Shown: positions 35,481 to 45,492 of the stretch, in pieces
Layout: each line of letters opens with the position of its first letter
How positions within the stretch are numbered: the stretch's first letter is position 1
Origin: Acidobacteriota bacterium
Lineage (GTDB): Bacteria > Acidobacteriota > Vicinamibacteria > Vicinamibacterales > SCN-69-37
NCBI GenBank assembly: GCA_024640135.1
Contig: JAHEFO010000005.1
Location: 1 to 46,753 of the forward strand
DNA: 46,753 nt
Direction: 5' to 3'
Position numbers and translations under genes: made by a program
The notes under the pieces: model-generated
The model's database searches: none
What the model was told of the DNA's origin: nothing
The model's input: the letters and a program-made list of their open reading frames with translations, nothing else

Positions 35481-38090
35481 ATGAAACGTGTAACGGGTCT
35501 CTCACTCGTGTTGGCTGCCGTGCTTGCCGCGCCATCGGTCCAGTCAGCTTCCCAGGCCCCCGCTGGGGGCGACGTACCGATTGGGCTCACGTGGCGCAAC
35601 GTCGGGCCCGGGGTCACTGGCACCCGGATCGTGGACTTTGCGGTGGTCGAACAGGATCCCGCGATTGTCTATGCGGCCACGGCATCCAGCGGTGTGTGGA
35701 AGACGCTGAACGCCGGCACCACATGGGAACCGCTGTTCCAGCACGAGGAGTCGATCTCCGTCGGTGGGATCGCGGTCTCGCAGTCAGACCCGGACATCGT
35801 CTGGGTGGCGACCGGTGAGCCGAACATGCGGAACCTCCGCAGCACCTCCTGGGGCACGGGTATCTACAAGAGTCTCGACGCGGGCCGCACATGGCGTCAC
35901 ATGGGACTCGCGGATGCGCGCCACATGGGCCGCGTGGTCATCCACCCCGCCAACCCAGACGTCGTCTTCGCGACCGTACTCGGATCGATGTGGCAGAACG
36001 ATCCTCGGCAGAATGCTGTCCGCGGCCTCTACAAGACCACCGACGGCGGTGCGACATGGAGCAAGACGCTCTCGGCCGGCGACCACGCCGGCATCGTGGA
36101 CCTCGTCATGGATCCCACCCAGCCGGACACGCTGTATGCGGCCGCGTGGCACCGCGAACGCCGCGACTGGAGCTTCGTCAACGTCGGCCCTGAGAGCGGG
36201 CTCTTCAAGTCCACCGACGGCGGCGACACGTGGACGAAACTTACAGCCGGCCTGCCGGTGACGCCAACGGGACGGCCCGGTGTCACGGTCTGCCGCTCGA
36301 GGCCGGCGACGCTGTATGCGGTCGTCGAAGGGGCCGACGGGGGCGTGTATCGCTCAACGGACGCCGGAGCGATCTGGACGCGCGTCAACACGATGTCCGC
36401 ATCATCGATGTACTACGGCCAGGTGCGCTGCGACCCGAACAACCCGGAACGGGTATACGTGCTCCAGACCCAGATGGCAATGTCGACGGACGGGGGCAAA
36501 ACCTTCACAACAGATATCCCTGGCCGGAGCGTGCATGTCGATCACCACGCGCTCTGGATCGATCCATCCGATTCGAGTCACCAGTGGCTGGGCAACGACG
36601 GGGGCATTTACCAGACGCGCGACCGCGGCGTGACATGGAGGTTCCACGATCAGCTCTCTGCCACACAGTTCTACGCGGTGGCCGTCGACATGCGCGAGCC
36701 GTTCTACTACGTCTGCGGCGGCACCCAGGACAACAACTCGCTCTGTGGCCCCTCGGCCACCCGAAACACGGACGGCATCGTCAATGCGGACTGGTATGTG
36801 ACGACCGGCGGCGACGGGTTCGCGCTCCAAATCGACCCGACCGACCCGTCGGTGGTGTACACCGAATCGCAGTACGGCGCTCTCGTGCAGTTCAACCCGT
36901 TCACGGGCCAACGGCGGCGGATTCAGCCTCAGGCGCCAGAGGGCCAGACCTATCGCTGGAATTGGAACGCGCCAATGCGGATCTCGCCGCACGACCCTGG
37001 CACGTTCTACTACGGCGCACAGTTCCTGTTCCGAACGCGCGACCGCGGCGCCACCTGGGATGTCGTCAGCCCCGATCTCACACGCCAGGTGGCAATCGAT
37101 CCGGAGCACCTGATCTCGCCCTACAGCACGCTGCTCTGGATTGATGAGTCTCCCCGCCATCGCGGATGGCTGGCGGTCGGCACGGATGACGGGCTGATCC
37201 AGGTGACCGAGGACGACGGAGCGACGTGGCGGCAGGCCGCTGCGATACCGGGCGTGCCCGAGCGCGCGCAGATTCGGCGTGTCTTCCACTCGGCGCATGA
37301 CGACCGCACCCTCTATGCCGCGGCGTCGGCGCATGAAGACGACACCTTCAGGCCGTTCGTCGCGAAGAGCACGGACCACGGCAGAACGTGGACGCGCATC
37401 GACACAGACCTGCCCATGCGCAGTCCGGTGATGTCGCTGGTGGAGGATCCCGTGAATCCCCTCTTGCTCTTTGCGGGCACACAGTTCGGGATCTACGCCA
37501 CCATCGACGGCGGGTCGCGCTGGTTCTCCCTTCAGCTGAACCTGCCCACCAGCCCCGTGCACGACATGGTGATTCATCCGCGCGAGGGCGATCTGGTGAT
37601 CGGCACGCACGGACGCGGGATCTGGCTGCTCGACTCGCTGGCCGGCCTGCGGGGGTTGACGCCTGAGGTACTGGCCGGCCCTGGCACGATCTTCACGCCG
37701 CGGCCGGCCTTCCAGATGACACGCTTTGATCGAGGCCGCAACGCGATGGGCAGCGCGTACTTCACCGCGCCCAATCCGCCAGACGGCGTGTCTCTCGACG
37801 TGTATCTGAACCCTTCGGGCACCGACGCTCCAACCATCGAGATCGCGGACGCCACCGGACGGGTTGTGCGGCGGCTCACCGCGCCGTCCGCCCGAGGACT
37901 CCAGCGCATCCTCTGGGACATGCGGGGCGATCCGCCCGCGGGGGCTCCCGGGAGTCCGGGGCGCGGACGTGGCGGGGCGCGGCCCCTGGTCGCGCCTGGC
38001 ACGTACGAGGCGCGGTTCACCCTCGCCAGCCTGACCACCCGCGTGCCGATCGTCGTACGCCCGGATCCAGGAGGACCTGGGAGGCCGTAG
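35481..38090 (+). CDS. Secreted BNR/Asp-box (VPS10/GH74-like) beta-propeller protein
   Basis: Signal peptide, many S/T-x-D-G-G-x-T-W repeats, HVDHHALWIDP, GTHGRG, FlgD-Ig-like tail. Confidence 0.85.
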   Translation: MKRVTGLSLVLAAVLAAPSVQSASQAPAGGDVPIGLTWRNVGPGVTGTRIVDFAVVEQDPAIVYAATASSGVWKTLNAGTTWEPLFQHEESISVGGIAVSQSDPDIVWVATGEPNMRNLRSTSWGTGIYKSLDAGRTWRHMGLADARHMGRVVIHPANPDVVFATVLGSMWQNDPRQNAVRGLYKTTDGGATWSKTLSAGDHAGIVDLVMDPTQPDTLYAAAWHRERRDWSFVNVGPESGLFKSTDGGDTWTKLTAGLPVTPTGRPGVTVCRSRPATLYAVVEGADGGVYRSTDAGAIWTRVNTMSASSMYYGQVRCDPNNPERVYVLQTQMAMSTDGGKTFTTDIPGRSVHVDHHALWIDPSDSSHQWLGNDGGIYQTRDRGVTWRFHDQLSATQFYAVAVDMREPFYYVCGGTQDNNSLCGPSATRNTDGIVNADWYVTTGGDGFALQIDPTDPSVVYTESQYGALVQFNPFTGQRRRIQPQAPEGQTYRWNWNAPMRISPHDPGTFYYGAQFLFRTRDRGATWDVVSPDLTRQVAIDPEHLISPYSTLLWIDESPRHRGWLAVGTDDGLIQVTEDDGATWRQAAAIPGVPERAQIRRVFHSAHDDRTLYAAASAHEDDTFRPFVAKSTDHGRTWTRIDTDLPMRSPVMSLVEDPVNPLLLFAGTQFGIYATIDGGSRWFSLQLNLPTSPVHDMVIHPREGDLVIGTHGRGIWLLDSLAGLRGLTPEVLAGPGTIFTPRPAFQMTRFDRGRNAMGSAYFTAPNPPDGVSLDVYLNPSGTDAPTIEIADATGRVVRRLTAPSARGLQRILWDMRGDPPAGAPGSPGRGRGGARPLVAPGTYEARFTLASLTTRVPIVVRPDPGGPGRP

Positions 38091-38116: not shown

Positions 38117-38719
38117 TCAGCGCTGAGTTCTGCCGGTGGACGCCCGTCGGCCCCTGGGAGGCTTCGGAAGGACGCTGACGGCTGCCTGCAGCTGCGCGCC
38201 CGCCGTGCCGAGCGCGTCAACCAGTGCCCGCAACTCAGGCGTGAGTTCAGCCACCGCCAATGCCGTCGTCACCCGTTCGATCGCGGCAGCGGGCGCGTGA
38301 ACGGCGGAGGCCTGGCGTTCCAGTTGCTCGGCGGCCAGCATGTGTTCGCGCGCCTTCTGCAGCAGCGGCCGTGTGTCGTTGTCACCGGTCAGGCGCTCGA
38401 TGACCAGCAGAGCCCGGCGTTCGACCGTCAGCGCCGTGGCGCGCATGAGCGTCTCTTCGCCGGCGATCGGCACCACGAACGGACCGGAGTCGGCCCGGGC
38501 GCCGCGCCGTTCGTGCCATGCGACCCACGCCTGCGGCAGGAAGTGATCCAGGAACGGAAGCCTGGTGTCGTCGTCTGACGTCTCGGGCGGGTCCACGCCC
38601 AGCGCAGCTTCGAGCCACTCCGGCGCCGTGCCCAGCGTCCGGAATCGTCCATCCATGGTGTGTTCGAACACCGTGACATCCAGGGCCCGCAGGACACTGG
38701 CGAGTAACGTTTCGCTCAT
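38117..38719 (-). CDS. Hypothetical protein: PAS-like domain plus degenerate HisKA-like helical hairpin
   Basis: ATGA overlap with the GTPase stop; alpha/beta N-domain (ALDVTVFE...PFLDHFL...SGPF...LLVIE); C-terminal ELTPELRALVDAL helix. Confidence 0.75.
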   Translation of the reverse strand: MSETLLASVLRALDVTVFEHTMDGRFRTLGTAPEWLEAALGVDPPETSDDDTRLPFLDHFLPQAWVAWHERRGARADSGPFVVPIAGEETLMRATALTVERRALLVIERLTGDNDTRPLLQKAREHMLAAEQLERQASAVHAPAAAIERVTTALAVAELTPELRALVDALGTAGAQLQAAVSVLPKPPRGRRASTGRTQR

Positions 38720-39249
38720 ACCAGCCCCTGACCAATCAGCGGCCCGGCGGAGGCGCCGGCCAGCATCGCCCGCGTGAGTGTCTCGAACGCCTGTTCCACG
38801 CCTTCGCCGGTCTTCGCGCTCGTTCGAATGACCCGCCAGCCCTGTTCGGCCATCTTGAAGAACATCTGCTCGTCAATCTCCCATTCGTCGGCGAGATCGT
38901 ACTTGTTCAGGAGCAGAATGAACGGCACGGATCCGACGGCCTCAACGGCCTTCTGCTGCATGAGTCGCGCGGTCTCCAATGTCGCGCGCCTGGTCCCGTC
39001 CACCACGAGCAGATACCCTGACATGCCGCGCAGATGCGACACCGGCACCGCCTGATAATCGTCATGACCGTAGATATCCCAGAGCATCAACTGCGCATCC
39101 TGCCCGTCGACGGTGACCTGCTTCTTGTCGATCTTGACGCCAACCGTCGTCAGGTACTTCTCCGAGAACATACTGGTGACGTATTGGGCGACCAGACTCG
39201 TCTTGCCGACGGCGAATCCGCCCAGCATGCAGATTTTCTTCTGAATCAT
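38716..39249 (-). CDS. Ras/Rab-like small GTPase (stand-alone, 177 aa)
   Basis: G1 GGFAVGKT, G2 YLTTVG, G3 WDIYG, G4 NKYD, G5 TSAKTG; strong AGGAGG RBS. Confidence 0.92.
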   Translation of the reverse strand: MIQKKICMLGGFAVGKTSLVAQYVTSMFSEKYLTTVGVKIDKKQVTVDGQDAQLMLWDIYGHDDYQAVPVSHLRGMSGYLLVVDGTRRATLETARLMQQKAVEAVGSVPFILLLNKYDLADEWEIDEQMFFKMAEQGWRVIRTSAKTGEGVEQAFETLTRAMLAGASAGPLIGQGLV

Positions 39250-39274: not shown

Positions 39275-41008
39275 CTATTCGCCCGACCCGGTCCGCCTCG
39301 TCACCGTGATCTGCACCCGCCGGTTGCGTTGCTTGTCGACACTATTCTCGCTCATCACGGCCGGTTGCCGGCTGCCTTCTCCCCGGGACACCACTTCCAG
39401 AAACGTCGTGGCGGCCGGGGCGATCGAGACGCGGACGAAGTCGGCTCTGGCCTGGCTCAGCGGCACATTGGCGGCCTCGATCCCATCCGAATCAGTGTGC
39501 CCCACGACTTCGACCCGAAAACGCAGTCCGGTCACACCGGCGATCTGCTCCAACTGACGGGTCTCCTCTGCCAGGCGGCCCAGGGCCACCTCCTGGCCTG
39601 ACGTCAGCCGCGCCGCGCCGCTGATGAACAGGAGCGTCTGCCCTTCAATGGCATCGACCAGGCTCTGGATCTGCCCTGACAGCGCACCGGCCGCGTCAAG
39701 CGACGTCACGCCGGCGACCAGCGGCGCCAGGCGCGCGGCCTCCGCCACCCATTCGAGGGTCACCGCACCGTCCGCCGACAGCACGCCATCGCGTACCGTC
39801 AGCGTGACCCCCGGCGGTGGCCGCAGGGCGCTGGCGGCACGGGCCGCCACCAGGATCGGGTCAAGCGCATAGTAGGGGGTCCAAACGCCGTGCACGTCAT
39901 CGGACGGCAATCCGGTGTCCACCAGCAACTCCTGCGGATCGCGCGCGAGCGGATCACGAAGCCCGGAGACCGTGAAGCCGCCCCACGTCCGGTCGGAAGC
40001 CACCACGACAATGCCAGGCTCGGCGCGCAACGCCTCGAGGTAGGACGACCATCGCTCGGCCGTGCGCCATCGGAGCCCCGCCCACACGAGGATCCCCAGC
40101 AGGACGAGACCCGCGATGACCCAGGTGCTCCGGCTTCTCGGCGCAGTGTCGTCGGCACGGTACTCGGCCGACAGGCAGGTCTCGAGCGTCTGCTGGGTGC
40201 CCGCGAGGGCGCTGGCATCTCCGGTGAACGACTCCAGCACATCGCCGAATTGCAGGTGGATGGACTCGACGGCCTCCTGGAGCCGGCCGCGCAGCGAGGC
40301 GGGCGCGGATCCGCGAATCACCGCGGCCACGATGGCATGGGGCCCGGGCTCAATCCACACAGACAGATCGCCCACCTTGAGGGCTTCAAGGGAATCCGAC
40401 GATTCGACCCGGAACGAGTCCTGCACGAAATCCTTGATGGCTGTGAGCATGCCCGACACCATGTCGGCGTCCTGAACGGCCGCGTGCGCCGCCGACACGT
40501 GCTGGAGGAGCAGGCCGCTCTTGCGTTCGATCAGGAACACCTGCTCGACCCTGTACAGCAGTGTCTTGATGAGCACCAGTTCGGCGAACGATTTCCCGGT
40601 TCTCCACGCCTCCAGACGCCACTGGAGTGAGCGTCGCGACACGGCTTGTTCCAGTGTTCGATTGAGGCTTTCGACCATGCTGGCCAGGCCGGCGGACACA
40701 GCCTTGCGGATGGCCGGTCCCATCACCGGGAACAGCGCATCGGCCAGCGGCTTCGGGTTGCGCTGGACTGACGTCGTGATGGCCTTTTCGATTGGCGGCG
40801 TCAATGCTGCCGTGAAACGCGGATCCTGCGAGTGTTGCAGGAAGACGCGCGGCAGCACCTCGGCTACGTCGGCAGCGCGCTCCTCAGGATCGTCCAGGCG
40901 CGCCTGCAGATCCGCCAGTTGCTGCTGCTCGGGTCCAAGGAGTAACGTCCGAAGTTCTTCGAGGTCGGCTGCCGGCCCGGGATCGCCTGAATCGGCGCGG
41001 TCATCCAC
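39275..41008 (-). CDS. Single-pass membrane protein: cytoplasmic helical and longin-like domains, periplasmic BON-like and OmpA-like domains
   Basis: TM at aa ~296-312; C-terminal VVGHTDSDG..N..LSQARA...NRRV OmpA_C signature; GTG start overlapping the upstream gene's end. Confidence 0.85.
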   Translation of the reverse strand: MDDRADSGDPGPAADLEELRTLLLGPEQQQLADLQARLDDPEERAADVAEVLPRVFLQHSQDPRFTAALTPPIEKAITTSVQRNPKPLADALFPVMGPAIRKAVSAGLASMVESLNRTLEQAVSRRSLQWRLEAWRTGKSFAELVLIKTLLYRVEQVFLIERKSGLLLQHVSAAHAAVQDADMVSGMLTAIKDFVQDSFRVESSDSLEALKVGDLSVWIEPGPHAIVAAVIRGSAPASLRGRLQEAVESIHLQFGDVLESFTGDASALAGTQQTLETCLSAEYRADDTAPRSRSTWVIAGLVLLGILVWAGLRWRTAERWSSYLEALRAEPGIVVVASDRTWGGFTVSGLRDPLARDPQELLVDTGLPSDDVHGVWTPYYALDPILVAARAASALRPPPGVTLTVRDGVLSADGAVTLEWVAEAARLAPLVAGVTSLDAAGALSGQIQSLVDAIEGQTLLFISGAARLTSGQEVALGRLAEETRQLEQIAGVTGLRFRVEVVGHTDSDGIEAANVPLSQARADFVRVSIAPAATTFLEVVSRGEGSRQPAVMSENSVDKQRNRRVQITVTRRTGSGE

Positions 41009-41597
41009 GTCGACCCTTGTCGGTGCCAGGAAGCTGCAGCTCGTTCGTGAGCCGCATGGCCATTTCGGTGAGCAGCGACGCCAGGATGGCTCGATCCGCC
41101 TTTTCGGTGCGGAGTTCCGTGGCTTCCTGCGTGAGCCGCGCCAGAACCTCGTCAGTCTTCTGCTGCAGCTCGTCAGTCATGCGCTTGTGCAAGTCGAGTG
41201 CCTGCTGGCGCAACTCCCGCTGCGCGCGGTCGATCTGGTCACCCAGTTGCCCGCTCTTCTTTTCGAACGTCTTGGTCGCTTCACGCGTCTCGCGGGCCAG
41301 GTCCTTGTCGGCGCTCGTGCGCTCGCTGTTTTCGGTCTTGATGCGTTCGCCGATCGACCCGGACTCCTGCTTGACAAACTGCTCGAGGGCGGCGAGGCGC
41401 TTCCGCACGTCCTCCTTCATCGCGCTTGTTTCCTTCAGCAGGCGCTCCTCGAGCCGCACGAAGCGGCGCTCGTAATCGCGCATCTGACCGCCGAACAGGA
41501 TGTCGCGGACCTTGTCGATGTTTCCGGCGCCCAGATCGTCCGAGGGCGTAGCGGCCGGCTTCTTCTTGGATTTTGCTCGGTCGGTCTTGGTGGCCAC
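41001..41597 (-). CDS. Coiled-coil hypothetical protein (198 aa)
   Basis: GTG 41597 with GAGGA RBS; NIDKVRDILFG, then charged heptad-like helices. Confidence 0.8.
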   Translation of the reverse strand: MATKTDRAKSKKKPAATPSDDLGAGNIDKVRDILFGGQMRDYERRFVRLEERLLKETSAMKEDVRKRLAALEQFVKQESGSIGERIKTENSERTSADKDLARETREATKTFEKKSGQLGDQIDRAQRELRQQALDLHKRMTDELQQKTDEVLARLTQEATELRTEKADRAILASLLTEMAMRLTNELQLPGTDKGRRG

Positions 41598-41722
41598 GAT
41601 GGGTATCCTCTGTGCTGCGATGTCGTCACACCCGGTCCCGGGTCCCGATCCCGGATCCCAAAACAAATATCACACCGGCTCGAACGCGTGATCCCAGTGC
41701 GCCCTGACAAGGCGTGACGACC

Positions 41723-42660: not shown

Positions 42661-42831
42661 TGTCGGCTCCTTTGGCTGGTCGTTTGGCGGTGTCGCCCTT
42701 CATGATTGCGTTTGGCACCGCGGACTGCAAGGACAATGGTGGAACACCGGGCTCTGCTGACCGCCGCCCCTGACGATCGGCGGAATCCGGTGACACTGAC
42801 AGAGTCGAAAGTGTGGCTCTACAATACTGGC

Positions 42832-45492
42832 GTGGATACGAAAGCCCCCCTTCGCCTTATTCTCGCGGCTGCGTTTCTTGCGGCCGCGTCGGCTGCGCCT
42901 GTGGCTCGCCAGTCGGCGCAGGCCACCTCCCCCGCAGAACGCCGTCAATCCTGGATTGACCACGTGGCCATGCGGGACGGGTCTGAGTTTCGCGGCATGC
43001 GCTGGCACGCGCTGGGACCGTCGCAGCAGGGATCGCGAATAGAAGCGATCGCGTTGTCACCGGGCGATCCAGCGACCATGTACGTAGGACCTGGCGGCGG
43101 CAACGTCTGGAAGACCACCAACAACGGAATCACATGGTCCCCAGTCTTCGACCATGAATCCGCATTCTCGATCGGCGACATCGCCGTCGCGCCGTCCGAC
43201 GAATCCATCGTCTGGGTCGGCACCGGAGAGGTGCAGCCAAGGCATAGCGGTCCGTCGTTTTCCGGGACCGGTGTGTTCAAGTCTTCCGACGCCGGGCAGA
43301 CGTGGACCAACCAGGGCCTCGGCGACACGCATCACATTGGCAAGGTCCTGATCCATCCGACCAATCCGGACCTCGTGTACGTGGCGGCCATGGGCCACTT
43401 CCGATCGGCCAACGACGAACGCGGCGTGTTCCGGACGACCGACGGCGGCCGAACTTGGAGCCGGTCGCTTTTTGTCAGCGACCAGACCGGCGTCATCGAT
43501 CTGGTGATGGATTCATCAGATCCCGACACGCTTCTTGCCTGGGCCTGGCAACTGACCGTGGACGGCGAGAGCGGCCCCCAGAGCGGGCTCTACAAAACGA
43601 CTGACGCGGGTGTGAGCTGGAAGAAGATCACGGCCGGATTACCGGCCGGTCCGATGGGGCGCGCGGGACTCGACATTGCGCCGAGCCGGCCCAACGTCAT
43701 GTACGCCTTTGTCGACAACTGGACGCCGGTGACGGGCGATGGCAACCGCTCCATCGTCGGTGGCGAAGTCTACCGCTCTGACGATCGCGGTGAGTCCTGG
43801 AAGAAGGCGAATACCGACGATACCTATGGCGTATTTGGCATCTTTGGATGGAAGTTTGCCGATGTGCGCATATCGCCCATCGACGAGAACGAGCTCTACA
43901 TCCTTGGCAACCGGATGTTCCGTTCCACCGACGGCGGCAAGACCTTCACGCGCATCGGCGAAACGATTCGACGGGTCAACAATACGCCCGGCGAAACAAT
44001 GCACCTCGATCACCATGAACTCGTGATCGACCCCAGGAATCCAGCGCGCCTGATCCTGGGCAACGATGGCGGCGTGTTCATCTCACACGACAAGGGCGCC
44101 ACCTGGCTCCATCTCAACAACATTCCGATCGGCCAGTTCTACTTCGTCACGGTTGATGACGGAGATCCCTATCGCATTTATGCCGGGTCACAGGACACCG
44201 GCGCGCTCGTGGGGCCATCGACGTATCGCTACGCCGCCGATCCGGTTGCGACTGATGCGTGGCGCTACATCTGGCTCGATCAGTGGACCGGCGGCGATGC
44301 ATTTACGACGCTTCCGGACCCCACCCATCCAGGGCTGGTGTACTACGAGCACCAGAATGGCGCGATGCGGCGCATCGACATGTCGGTCGGAAATCCCTAC
44401 TCCGGGGGACCGGCGACCGAAGTGGTTCGGCCGCGTCCGGCCGACGGTGATCCTCCGGTGCGCTTCAGCTGGTTCACGCCGTATCTCATCTCGCATCACG
44501 ACCCGCACACCTTGTATGCCGCGGGCAACGTCGTGTTCAAGACCACCGACCGGGCGGCGACCTGGCGCCGGATCAGTCCCGACCTCGGCGAGCCGGGAAG
44601 CACCGAACGCGCGATGGTGCCGACCGGCGCGATCACGACGCTGAGCGAGTCGAGACTGAAGGCAGGCGTCCTCTATGCCGGCACTGAGGGTGGCAAGGTC
44701 TGGGTGACCCAGGACGATGGTGAACAGTGGGCCGAGATCACGGCAGGCCTGAGAGACAGCAAGTGGGTCACGCGCGTAGTGGCGTCTGAGCATGATGAGG
44801 CGGTGGTCTACGCCGCTCAGAGCGGGTACCGGCAGGACGACTTCAGGTCGTACATCTTCCGATCGGCCGATCACGGCACCACGTGGCAATCGATTGCCAA
44901 CGGCCTGCCTGCCGAGCCCGTCAACGTCATCATTGAGGACCCGACATCACCCTCCATTCTCTACGTGGGGACGGATCTGGGTGTCTACGTCACGCTGGAC
45001 GCCGGCCGGTCCTGGCAATCGCTCGTCGCGGATCTCCCCAGCACGCCCGTCTACGACCTTGTTGTTCATCGGCGGGAAGGCGAACTGATCGCCGCGACAC
45101 ATGGGCGGGGGCTCTTCCTTCTGGATGTGCGGCCGGTTCAGGCGAGTGCGGCGGCCACTTCCGGGCCCGGACTTACCGTGTTCCCGGTACGTCCCGTCCG
45201 ACTGACCTGGCACGTGCGGCGTGAAGTGCCCCCGCAGCCCCCTCGGGGAATCGCGGAAATCCACTACCGAGTGGCTGCGGGCGGCGATGTGCAGATGATC
45301 GTTCGAGACGGACAGGGACGCGTGGTCAGGACCCTGGCCGGTCGCGCCGTGCCGGGCGTCAATGTCCTCGAGTGGGACGCGCGCAATGATGCCGGCCGGG
45401 ACATGGCCCCTGGCACCTACCAGGTGGAGGTCAGCTCGGCAGGGATGCAGGCAACCACGATGGTGGAGTTGTTGCCAGTGGAGCCGCGCTAG
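42832..45492 (+). CDS. Second secreted BNR/Asp-box (VPS10-like) beta-propeller protein
   Basis: Signal peptide after GTG 42832, Asp-box repeats, HLDHH, ATHGRG, FlgD-Ig-like tail; TACAAT ends 6 nt before the start. Confidence 0.85.
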   Translation: MDTKAPLRLILAAAFLAAASAAPVARQSAQATSPAERRQSWIDHVAMRDGSEFRGMRWHALGPSQQGSRIEAIALSPGDPATMYVGPGGGNVWKTTNNGITWSPVFDHESAFSIGDIAVAPSDESIVWVGTGEVQPRHSGPSFSGTGVFKSSDAGQTWTNQGLGDTHHIGKVLIHPTNPDLVYVAAMGHFRSANDERGVFRTTDGGRTWSRSLFVSDQTGVIDLVMDSSDPDTLLAWAWQLTVDGESGPQSGLYKTTDAGVSWKKITAGLPAGPMGRAGLDIAPSRPNVMYAFVDNWTPVTGDGNRSIVGGEVYRSDDRGESWKKANTDDTYGVFGIFGWKFADVRISPIDENELYILGNRMFRSTDGGKTFTRIGETIRRVNNTPGETMHLDHHELVIDPRNPARLILGNDGGVFISHDKGATWLHLNNIPIGQFYFVTVDDGDPYRIYAGSQDTGALVGPSTYRYAADPVATDAWRYIWLDQWTGGDAFTTLPDPTHPGLVYYEHQNGAMRRIDMSVGNPYSGGPATEVVRPRPADGDPPVRFSWFTPYLISHHDPHTLYAAGNVVFKTTDRAATWRRISPDLGEPGSTERAMVPTGAITTLSESRLKAGVLYAGTEGGKVWVTQDDGEQWAEITAGLRDSKWVTRVVASEHDEAVVYAAQSGYRQDDFRSYIFRSADHGTTWQSIANGLPAEPVNVIIEDPTSPSILYVGTDLGVYVTLDAGRSWQSLVADLPSTPVYDLVVHRREGELIAATHGRGLFLLDVRPVQASAAATSGPGLTVFPVRPVRLTWHVRREVPPQPPRGIAEIHYRVAAGGDVQMIVRDGQGRVVRTLAGRAVPGVNVLEWDARNDAGRDMAPGTYQVEVSSAGMQATTMVELLPVEPR

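Follow-up and report, generated by a model that had tools for sequence, protein, structure and literature searches.

The window, by which we mean the whole stretch of DNA that was analyzed (46,753 nt; positions 1 to 46,753 of contig JAHEFO010000005.1, assembly GCA_024640135.1), originates from an Acidobacteriota bacterium (GTDB lineage Vicinamibacteria; Vicinamibacterales; SCN-69-37) and contains a cluster of four genes, all encoded on the reverse strand. The first of these (41001..41666) is an open reading frame of at most 221 aa, the true start of which is uncertain, and encodes a coiled-coil protein that gave only weak matches of the coiled-coil type in Pfam. Its stop overlaps by 8 nt with the start of the second gene (39275..41008), which encodes a membrane protein of 577 aa, as delineated from the open reading frame, Pfam, NCBIfam, and the translation. 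The third gene (38716..39249) encodes a Rup-type, Rab-like small GTPase of 177 aa (PF00071, E 9.1e-32), and the fourth (38117..38719), whose start overlaps with the stop of the GTPase gene by 4 nt, encodes a protein of 200 aa for which an AF2 model and Foldseek indicated a PAS-like domain and a long helical hairpin.

A neighborhood of four genes has been described for the Group 1 Rup GTPases by Wuichet and Sogaard-Andersen in 2014 (PMC4316618), and the gene for the membrane protein lies in such a neighborhood. The GTPase is of the Ras family and lacks the G3 glutamine conserved elsewhere, and adjoining it are the genes for a coiled-coil protein and for a protein with the domain of the description, a TM helix, and an OmpA domain. 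The coiled-coil protein corresponds to the "coiled-coil cytoplasmic protein" of that neighborhood, the membrane protein carries, in the same order in a single chain, a conserved domain, a helix that spans the membrane, and an OmpA domain, and the fourth protein has a conserved Gln in its N-terminal domain (PMC4316618). Two differences stand out. The fourth gene is described there as encoding an output protein, either a kinase or a c-di-GMP enzyme, with an invariant Gln in its N-terminal domain, whereas the protein found here consists of the PAS-like domain and the hairpin alone, with no kinase or cyclase output. In addition, the cytoplasmic half of the OmpA protein is listed in PMC4316618 as a domain of unknown function, while here it models as a longin-type domain, belonging to the longin/roadblock superfamily.

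The best match of the GTPase among PDB sequences was Rab23 (E 6e-24), bearing out the first-pass annotation, in which the neighboring GTPase had been called Rab-like. Its motifs are GGFAVGKT (G1), WDIYGH (G3, in which an equivalent of Gln61 is absent), NKYD, and SAK, and among 57 sequences of its family the position of Gln61 is occupied by E, Q, H, A, or D. Without a conserved catalytic Gln, the GTPase is expected to need partners in order to cycle, as argued in PMC4316618. Its C-terminus, as read from the sequence, contains no lipidation motif.

No Pfam or NCBIfam family matched the PAS-like protein of 200 aa, and its AF2 model (pLDDT 86.7) contained no output domain. LOV/PAS histidine kinases were the top Foldseek matches of this model, with 8a52_A as the best (E 2.2e-5). 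Residues Q121 and R124 are nearly invariant in the family alignment, and it has been proposed that the Gln missing from the GTPase is supplied by the conserved Gln of this fourth protein (PMC4316618). Elsewhere, the same N-terminal domain heads histidine and hybrid kinases, a sigma54 activator, a SpoIIE phosphatase, and a GAF kinase. The longin-like and PAS-like domains of the cluster were also compared with each other and, with an hhalign probability of 2%, are unrelated.

Predicted fold of the cytoplasmic half of the membrane protein

The 577-aa protein consists of an N-terminal helical region (aa 12-149; 40562..40975), for which AF2 predicted six helices and which is conserved, a longin-like domain (40160..40561), assigned from AF2 secondary structure, Foldseek, structural alignments, and a complex model, a predicted single TM helix (aa 296-314, WVIAGLVLLGILVWAGLRW; 40067..40123), read from the translation, a periplasmic region, and an OmpA-like peptidoglycan-binding domain (aa ~455-571; 39296..39646). 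Pfam PF00691 (OmpA) matched aa 496-563 with 30.5 bits (E 4.6e-7), above its gathering threshold of 27.2, so that the earlier claim of a longin-like domain fused to an OmpA-family peptidoglycan-binding domain holds on the OmpA side; the NCBIfam matches to this region (aa 455-571) were partial, and all fell under the full-protein cut-offs. An OmpA domain was found in 66 of the 82 family members scanned with Pfam. The longin-like half presumably lies in the cytoplasm, since there is no N-terminal hydrophobic stretch, the only such stretch is that at aa 296-314, and the OmpA-like domain follows beyond it. The predicted helix agrees with the "inner membrane spanning alpha-helix" of PMC4316618.

The first-pass annotation had placed a longin-like domain at 40169-40555, which corresponds on the reverse strand to aa 152-280 of the 577-aa reading frame; the peptides VEQVFLIERKSGLLLQH, DADMVSGMLTAIKDFVQDSF, and LEALKVGDLSVWIEPGPHAIVAAVI on which it was based are indeed present in the translation. 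The domain stood up in the analyses below, and the stretch named in the first-pass annotation falls within the longin-like domain as delineated here. The conserved cytoplasmic unit is larger, however, and spans aa ~10-286 as one block, of which the longin-like domain forms the C-terminal half. In the family alignments, P94 and W130 of the N-terminal helical region are invariant, and G97-R101, R131, R136, T137, and G138 are conserved in at least 90% of the sequences. R131 is invariant across 82 sequences; R232 and Q156, like R136, are conserved at 90% or above. The structure searches barely covered aa 12-149.

An AF2 model of aa 1-295 was built from an alignment of 131 rows (mean pLDDT 87.0, pTM 0.62). 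The predicted elements of its C-terminal half are strands at 150-161 and 167-172, a helix at 181-199, strands at 209-212, 215-221, and 225-233, and helices at 237-259 and 265-276. [quoted passage not shown] Longin or roadblock proteins topped the matches when the model was searched against the PDB with Foldseek: 19 matches had E<=1e-3, and TRAPP Bet5, Mon1-Ccz1, MglB, and Ragulator head those listed. A separate search with VIA-align against 48,161 representative chains, made without Foldseek, yielded 57 chains at Z>=8. The best 50 of these 57 all belong to the longin or roadblock superfamily, and none of them is a PAS, GAF, or profilin protein; VAMP7 and Fuzzy (both Z 13.0), Sec22 (12.6), and MglB (11.2) were the best.

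Pairwise structural alignments point to a longin rather than a roadblock arrangement in the model, with Z-scores of 13.0-13.3 to the longin domains of VAMP7 (4afi_A, Z 13.3, 118 residues aligned, rmsd 2.5), Sec22b (1ifq_A, Z 13.2, 120 aligned, spanning all 127 residues of the chain), and Fuzzy (LD1, 7q3d_C, Z 13.0, 125 aligned; Z 12.9 for 9rs9_A in the Rab23 complex). Longin chains superpose over the model from 151/153 to 281-285, the two C-terminal helices included. In roadblock chains, the alignment starts at residue 16-28 of the chain and is confined to aa 151-261 of the model, so the N-terminal helix of the roadblock proteins is left without a counterpart and the last helix of the model is unmatched. 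Taken as a match of a predicted structure, the similarity to longin/roadblock proteins is far above chance. In the main texts of the open literature, we found no paper that gives a longin fold to a Rup-linked protein, and the fold assignment appears to be new, with prior notice being possible; the pairing of the protein with the GTPase had already been described.

Sequence searches gave a different picture. Pfam and NCBIfam returned no match for the cytoplasmic part, and none of the longin-type families of Pfam appeared at E<=1. These families include Longin, Sybindin, Sedlin_N, and Fuz_longin_1. Among the 82 family members scanned with Pfam, no longin or roadblock family was significant, Fuz_longin_1 appearing once (E 0.078). 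The roadblock family Robl_LC7 (PF03259) did not match the 577-aa protein in Pfam, nor any protein in 61 genomes (that of the window and 60 relatives), while control genomes did match. When PDB sequences were searched with aa 1-295 in phmmer, the single match was at chance level (E 1.3), and a profile of the longin-domain alignment detected no longin or roadblock chain among PDB sequences at E<=10. That profile matched only a phage tail protein (E 0.12) and one other chain (E 0.69), neither of them relevant. In the ESM Atlas features search with aa 140-290, the best score was 0.83, to unnamed clusters, and all scores stayed below the level at which they are more than leads; a Roadblock/LAMTOR2 cluster appeared at rank 30 (0.76, likewise below threshold). 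With aa 1-295, no usable match was obtained among the named clusters. As sequence-based methods provide no link to longin or roadblock proteins, homology to either is unproven.

The missing sequence-level link and the subthreshold ESM Atlas leads would fit a domain that merely shares a common alpha/beta arrangement with longins and serves for dimerization or ligand sensing, with the GTPase being acted upon by other parts of the operon's products, such as the coiled coil, the PAS-like protein, or the N-terminal helices. The closest structural neighbors, VAMP7, Sec22b, and Ykt6, are moreover not regulators of GTPases. We nevertheless consider this explanation highly improbable, given that the best 50 VIA-align chains were without exception of longin or roadblock type, and given the genomic association and the modeled complex described below.

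Gene order and spread of the family

To place the cluster in a wider context, 80 related loci from many phyla were examined. The gene for the protein with the domain, TM helix, and OmpA domain was present at all 80 loci, and the coiled-coil gene lay directly upstream of it at 77. A GTPase gene was found at 70 of the 80 loci, and at 61 of these 70 it was located directly downstream on the same strand; at 6 of the 10 loci lacking it, no more than about 500 nt separate the module gene from the end of the contig. Similarly, in a phylum sample of 201 genomes, 12 carried the longin module; all of these also had the GTPase, which was found in 13 genomes in total. So tight an association with the GTPase, both in gene order and in occurrence, argues against a domain that has nothing to do with it. 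The family is large, with aa 1-295 matching 4996 representative clusters (50% identity, E<=1e-3), and record titles name Acidobacteriota, cyanobacteria, Nitrospira, Desulfomonile, Planctomycetota, Verrucomicrobiales, and Armatimonadetes, some of the titles of MAGs looking unreliable.

Other genomic indications of an interaction were set aside. One candidate for a Rosetta-stone fusion, a family member with a Ras match (P0160), contained a GTPase fragment of 60 residues, and another (P0131) carried the tail of a coiled-coil protein; both are likely artefacts of gene calling or assembly rather than fusions. Pairwise identities of the longin domain and the GTPase were correlated over 52 loci in a mirror-tree analysis (r 0.55), but other pairs within the operon scored higher (0.66 and 0.69), indicating that the value reflects shared phylogeny, and it was dropped as evidence.

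The modeled complex and its possible function

When two copies of aa 1-290 were modeled together with the GTPase, ipSAE values of 0.67, 0.69, and 0.69 were obtained, against 0.00 for the best of three controls. In the calibration of the method, 58 of 80 solved complexes attained the mark passed by these values, as did 2 of 110 mismatched pairs; our complex differs from that set-up, having been built from unpaired alignments and with two module copies. The pLDDT was 78 for the partner and only 60-62 for the module chains, and the runs shared at least 92% of their contacts. Since solved complexes of longin and roadblock domains with GTPases exist, the score may reflect memorized geometry.

In the model, the helix alpha1 (aa 179-198) of both copies and the loop at 163-167 lie on the switch regions of the GTPase, in agreement with the longin/roadblock platform described in PMC3747258. 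On the side of the module, the interface includes the invariant residues A190 and F194, as well as M187, I191, D193, and D197, which are conserved in at least 90% of the sequences. The GTPase contributes the invariant residues Y32, G37, V38, W57, and G75. That the conserved residues of both proteins fall on the interface, and that the complex passes while its controls stay at zero, further speaks against the common alpha/beta arrangement discussed above. The modeling thus suggests that the longin-like domain probably binds the neighboring Rab-like GTPase via its switch regions.

Based on these findings, we propose, with moderate confidence, that the 577-aa protein belongs, as its membrane component, to a Group 1 Rup small-GTPase signaling module in which an OmpA-anchored longin dimer binds, holds, and regulates the GTPase. 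The periplasmic OmpA-like domain would fasten the protein to peptidoglycan, while the longin-fold domain would dimerize into a platform like those known from MglB, Ragulator, TRAPP, and Mon1-Ccz1. Each protomer would use its helix alpha1 (aa 181-199), along with the beta1-beta2 loop, to contact the GTPase at switch I, at the interswitch strands, and at the end of switch II. Such binding would keep the GTPase on the inner membrane and set its nucleotide state. By likeness to the eukaryotic longin GEFs, nucleotide exchange is the favored activity, making the protein a receptor-like GEF, and the GTPase, once loaded with GTP, would go on to engage the PAS-like domain encoded by the fourth gene. 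The fold, the gene order, the co-occurrence, and the modeled interface are in silico results; dimerization, binding in the cell, a GEF rather than a GAP direction, and an input signal are what we infer. Several observations fit this proposal less well. The N-terminal helical half is equally conserved but has no place in the mechanism, a shared fold does not fix function, and the SNARE longins, which are the top structural matches, regulate no GTPase. With regard to exchange in particular, the roadblock proteins that partner bacterial GTPases (MglB, MfpD) have been characterized as GAPs or as having both GEF and GAP activity.

The platform could accordingly be thought of as activating GTP hydrolysis, with exchange being spontaneous or carried out by something else, either by repositioning residues of the GTPase itself, as MglB does, or by inserting an arginine, as the eukaryotic longin GAPs do. 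MglB is a strong structural match (107 residues at the Z-score given above), and the module does contain conserved Arg and Gln residues (R131, R136, R232, and Q156). Without an equivalent of Gln61, the GTPase would also need a GAP that supplies or organizes catalytic residues, and MglB-type roadblock partners of bacteria are mainly described as GAPs (PMC9481161, PMC11016934). However, these conserved Arg and Gln residues are absent from the confident interface residues, with Arg232 and Gln156 lying outside the modeled interface, and the missing Gln is assigned in PMC4316618 to the PAS-like protein. The best matches with full coverage, moreover, have the longin order, and those listed that act on GTPases are the GEF subunits Fuzzy, Mon1-Ccz1, and TRAPP. 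A GAP platform appears unlikely to us.

Alternatively, the domain may have no catalytic role and act as an anchor or receptor specific for one nucleotide state, tethering the GTPase at sites of the inner membrane defined by peptidoglycan. A model for this is the longin domain SRX of the SRP receptor alpha subunit, which binds SR-beta-GTP. The structure search did return SRX-SR-beta complexes (5ck3_A, Z 8.2; 2go5_1, Z 9.1; 6frk_y, Z 9.4), yet these matches rank below those to SNARE, GEF, and MglB proteins. An interface over the switch regions is what effector-type binding would predict, and the lack of a lipidation motif means that the GTPase must be recruited to the membrane via a protein. Tethering is compatible with catalysis, though, and we regard a purely noncatalytic anchor as rather improbable, slightly more so than a GAP.

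Comparison with known systems

Longin and roadblock domains are recurring platforms for the regulation of small GTPases. Should our model hold, a very large family of bacterial proteins would pair a domain of longin order with a Rab-like GTPase, extending the rule of a GTPase plus a longin/roadblock platform to the Rup family and offering tractable bacterial systems, such as Nostoc and Anabaena, for the study of such platforms. The widespread label "OmpA family protein" would then hide a probable signaling receptor that joins the envelope to the cytoplasm, and the source of eukaryotic Rab regulation would become a directly testable question. Rup GTPases are the bacterial kin closest to Rab, Ras, and Rho and are described as not coupled to MglB-type partners (PMC4316618), while the roadblock/longin families have been considered probably archaeal in origin (PMC10933270). 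A scenario in which the Rup GTPase and its longin partner form an ancient bacterial module homologous to the systems of Mon1-Ccz1, CPLANE, TRAPP, and DENN, and in which bacteria gave eukaryotes both together, instead of the longin domain arising from an archaeal roadblock by circular permutation, seems doubtful to us. With profile methods linking nothing, the suggestion of the first-pass annotation that the pair bears on how GTPase regulation arose in eukaryotes draws on structural similarity alone.

Among known proteins, the SNARE longins VAMP7, Sec22b, and Ykt6 are the best structural matches (Z 12.8-13.3) and are covered over the whole domain. They govern SNARE assembly and adaptor binding, whereas the protein described here occurs in a bacterial signaling context and has no SNARE motif. 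The MglB/roadblock systems (MglA-MglB, the LAMTOR proteins of Ragulator, and the conservon proteins CvnB/MfpD) share with the cluster a partner encoded beside a bacterial small GTPase, but differ in their uncounterparted N-terminal helix, in the last helix that is extra here, and in the profile of Robl_LC7, which is silent on our protein.

The eukaryotic longin Rab GEFs (Mon1-Ccz1, Fuzzy-Inturned of CPLANE, and Trs23/Bet5 of TRAPP) have the same order of elements and share the fold over ~125-133 residues, with Z-scores of 13.0 for Fuzzy, 12.7 for Trs23, and 11.3 for Ccz1 or Mon1 chains. As in these GEFs, the partner is Rab-like, and two alpha1 helices touch its switch regions, here in the predicted complex. 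Unlike them, the domain shows only 9-18% identity in structural alignments, with no similarity at the profile level. Finally, where the eukaryotic longin GEFs form heterodimers, a homodimer is assumed for the protein of the window, in which the longin-like domain is fused to a TM helix and a peptidoglycan-binding domain.

A membrane protein within a four-gene cluster

The longin-like domain that the first-pass annotation placed at 40169-40555 (minus strand) corresponds to residues 152-280 of a 577-residue product, translated from an open reading frame at 39275-41008 (minus strand), and the peptides quoted in that annotation were found in this translation. On inspection, the N-terminus of the protein contains no hydrophobic segment, and a single hydrophobic stretch was identified by eye at residues 296-314. 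Towards the C-terminal end, an OmpA-like domain was detected at residues 496-563 (PF00691, E = 4.6e-7), scoring 30.5 bits where the cut-off is 27.2, and OmpA/Pal/MotB/TssL-type NCBIfam models match residues 455-571 partially. Because of these three features, the first ~295 residues, here called the module, are predicted to be cytoplasmic. Pfam and NCBIfam scans gave no model over this part.

The module gene is the second of four tightly packed genes, all on the minus strand. Its start is overlapped by 8 nt by the stop of a gene for a coiled-coil protein (41001-41666), and after a gap of 25 nt it is followed by a gene for a 177-residue Ras-family GTPase (38716-39249; PF00071, E = 9.1e-32). The best PDB sequence match of this GTPase, a Rab-like protein of the Rup type, is Rab23 (E = 6e-24), and the genome carries only this one close copy. 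The fourth gene (38117-38719), which overlaps the GTPase gene by 4 nt, encodes a 200-residue protein with no family match in Pfam or NCBIfam. The flanking genes look unrelated to the cluster: they encode an FKBP, a DUF937 protein, and 2 large Sortilin/Vps10-type BNR-repeat proteins, one of 869 residues (35481-38090, plus strand) and one of 928 residues with a FlgD Ig-like C-terminal domain (42706-45492, plus strand), both probably unconnected with the Rup system.

A very large protein family is recognisable by this cytoplasmic part. A word-indexed search, in which 8000 candidates were scored, yielded 3619 proteins matching it at E<=1e-3; among the 120 matches listed, source names such as "OmpA family" or "OOP family porin" occur, and a precomputed OmpA domain is annotated in the majority. 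At E-value limits of 1e-3, 1e-10, and 1e-30, an exhaustive search matched 4996, 3344, and 1676 cluster representatives, respectively. As matches span query residues ~10-286 in one unbroken block, the conserved unit exceeds the proposed domain; it consists of an N-terminal helical half and a C-terminal beta-rich half. Residues P94, W130, L159, A190, F194, and G233 are invariant in a 131-sequence alignment, and conservation is strongest in the helix DxDMVSGMLTAIQDFVxDSF. Longer family variants have BON domains added to the periplasmic part. The N-terminal helical half (40562-40975, minus strand; residues 12-149) equals the longin domain in conservation, with the motifs FPVxGPAIRKA, W130-R131, and R136-T137-G138, and lies outside the modelled GTPase interface.

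Predicted fold of the module

An AlphaFold2 model of the module, built from a 131-row alignment, had a mean pLDDT of 87.0 and a pTM of 0.62. In this model, residues 12-149 form six helices, followed by strands at 150-161 and 167-172, a helix at 181-199, strands at 209-212, 215-221, and 225-233, and helices at 237-259 and 265-276, which is the longin order that had been proposed from the sequence. Foldseek returned 19 PDB matches at E<=1e-3, led by TRAPP Bet5 (2j3t_C, 1.3e-4), Mon1-Ccz1 (5ldd_B, 1.7e-4), MglB (3t1s, 2.8e-4), and Ragulator, with AP sigma subunits, Fuzzy-Inturned, and Sec22b next. Upon re-alignment of the Foldseek candidates, the highest scores were those of the VAMP7 longin domain (Z 13.3, 118 residues aligned, rmsd 2.5), Sec22b (Z 13.2, 120 aligned, residues 1-127 of its 127 covered), Fuzzy LD1 (Z 13.0), Ykt6 (Z 12.8), and Trs23 (Z 12.7). 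A Foldseek-independent search of 48,161 representative chains found 57 with Z>=8, and all 50 of those listed belong to the longin or roadblock superfamily. The structure searches are in agreement, and the first-pass observation is upheld.

Longin chains superpose on model residues ~153-283, with both C-terminal helices included, whereas roadblock chains (MglB, Z 11.2; LAMTOR, ~10.9) align only with residues ~152-260, and enter the alignment at their own residue 16-28, so that their N-terminal helix finds no match in the model. As longin domains are defined as bbabbbaa, and roadblock domains as the circular permutation abbabbba, in PMC3747258, the modelled domain is of longin type by that definition. 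The assignment is based on a predicted structure, aligned at 9-19% identity, and makes a fold of the longin/roadblock class very probable. At the sequence level, the relationship escaped every method applied: a domain-only alignment profile found nothing relevant among PDB sequences, and a Pfam scan of 82 family members gave no significant longin or roadblock match (one Fuz_longin_1 at E 0.078). Robl_LC7 was not found in this genome and 60 relatives (0/61), and every ESM Atlas lead for the module was under the useful level.

Association with the Rab-like GTPase

At least 600 stretches were matched in a search for related loci, 590 of the matches listed encoding relatives, and the best 80 loci were kept. 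Their record titles name Acidobacteriota, cyanobacteria (Nostoc, Anabaena, and others), Nitrospira, Desulfomonile, Planctomycetota, Verrucomicrobiales, and Armatimonadetes, with a few MAG titles that look unreliable. Among these 80, 77 have a coiled-coil homolog directly upstream of the module gene. A GTPase homolog accompanies the module gene in 70 loci, and in 61 of them it is the next gene downstream, on the same strand; of the 10 loci that lack one, 6 have a contig end within the gene or no more than about 500 nt from it. Of 201 genomes evenly drawn from the phylum, 12 gave a match to the module (E<=1e-20) and 13 to the GTPase (E<=1e-10), the latter comprising all 12 module genomes and one with the GTPase only. 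These counts are descriptive, because related genomes are not independent.

A rearranged version of the cluster is found in six loci of the Desulfomonile and Desulfobacterales type (L043, L050, L051, L053, L062, and L069), all with a longer module protein of 637-721 aa. A GTPase was found in four of them, L043, L053, L062, and L069, where it is encoded upstream or on the opposite strand. A PAS-like domain protein is encoded upstream of the coiled-coil gene in L043, L050, and L051, fused in L043 to a SpoIIE phosphatase. In one genome of the phylum sample (G157:C213:55482-56626), two tandem Rup GTPase copies lie downstream of the module gene.

Two copies of residues 1-290 were modelled with the GTPase, using a separate alignment for each, alongside 3 controls. 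The ipSAE values were 0.67, 0.69, and 0.69, and the best control had 0.00; in calibration, 58 of the 80 solved complexes and 2 of the 110 mismatched pairs reached the score mark, counts only roughly valid for such a job, and a pass can stem from likeness to solved complexes, comparable ones being MglA-MglB, Ypt7-Mon1-Ccz1, and Rab23-Fuzzy-Inturned. The partner pLDDT was 78, and contacts agreed between runs by at least 92%. On the module side, the modelled interface is formed by alpha1 of both copies (residues 179-197 in copy 1, 186-198 in copy 2), the beta1-beta2 loop (163-167), and residues 262-265, and on the GTPase side by residues 1-5, by 25-42, which cover switch I and the beginning of the interswitch, by 53-57, and by 69-77, where switch II ends. 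It holds the most conserved residues of the module (A190, F194, M187, I191, D193, and D197) and of the GTPase (Y32, G37, V38, W57, G75, and the N-terminal QKK). We consider direct binding of the GTPase by the module likely. The first-pass annotation had proposed a candidate bacterial GEF/GAP, in a longin and Rab-like pair linked to a peptidoglycan-binding domain. This interpretation gains partial support, as to fold and pairing, from the modelled fold, the gene order, the co-occurrence, and the complex model.

The GTPase begins with MIQKK, a stretch that is at least 90% conserved among 57 sequences of its family alignment and lies within the modelled interface; this is unusual among Ras-family proteins.

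Putative role and relation to known systems

The model of the 200-residue protein (pLDDT 86.7) has the order alpha-beta-beta-alpha-alpha-beta-beta-beta, followed by two long helices, and resembles LOV/PAS histidine kinases, phytochrome PAS domains, and NifL (best match 8a52_A, E 2.2e-5). A homolog of its N-terminal domain is present in 48 of the best 80 loci; 46 of these also have the GTPase, and in 40 of the 46 the homolog follows it by no more than 1.2 kb. Among 12 proteins scanned from other loci, which lie in other phyla, this domain of ~140 N-terminal residues stands at the head of histidine kinases, hybrid kinases with receiver and Hpt domains, a sigma54 activator, a SpoIIE-type phosphatase, and a GAF kinase. 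Q121 and R124, in the LQKARE motif, hardly vary among 37 sequences, and the protein therefore looks like an effector or output arm. In this lineage, it comprises the PAS-like domain and a helical hairpin, without a catalytic output domain. Stand-alone forms of ~146-201 aa recur in 15 of the related loci that were aligned, and one more is truncated where its contig ends.

The 577-residue protein is probably a receptor-like regulator, fixed to peptidoglycan outside and presenting a longin dimer inside. This dimer would bind the switch face of the Rup GTPase, keep it at the membrane, and control its nucleotide state, and the GTP-bound GTPase would then act on the PAS-like domain of the output protein. 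If the module binds the GTPase, a GEF activity has close to an even chance; it is preferred only because eukaryotic longin GEFs are among the best structural matches and the PAS-like protein is the better GAP candidate. Bacterial precedents argue against this preference, as MglB and MfpD are described as GAPs, and a GAP role for the module is possible if rather unlikely. A non-catalytic anchor or effector is slightly less likely again, and any other role improbable.

Wuichet and Sogaard-Andersen (PMC4316618) defined the Rup family together with its Group 1 neighbourhood. [quoted passage not shown] A Thiomargarita preprint (10.1101/2022.04.11.487978) describes a Ras gene and a peptidoglycan-binding gene in a possible operon. 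From these two sources, the operon and the GTPase-module pairing are already known. The predicted fold of the neighbourhood's unknown domain appears to be the new part; our literature search, with subscription journals mostly beyond its reach, found no paper assigning one. The module would be a bacterial, membrane-anchored platform of longin order for a Rab-like GTPase, inside a previously described operon, and its modelled arrangement is that of the "top-face single helix" platform of longin and roadblock dimers, as set out in PMC3747258.
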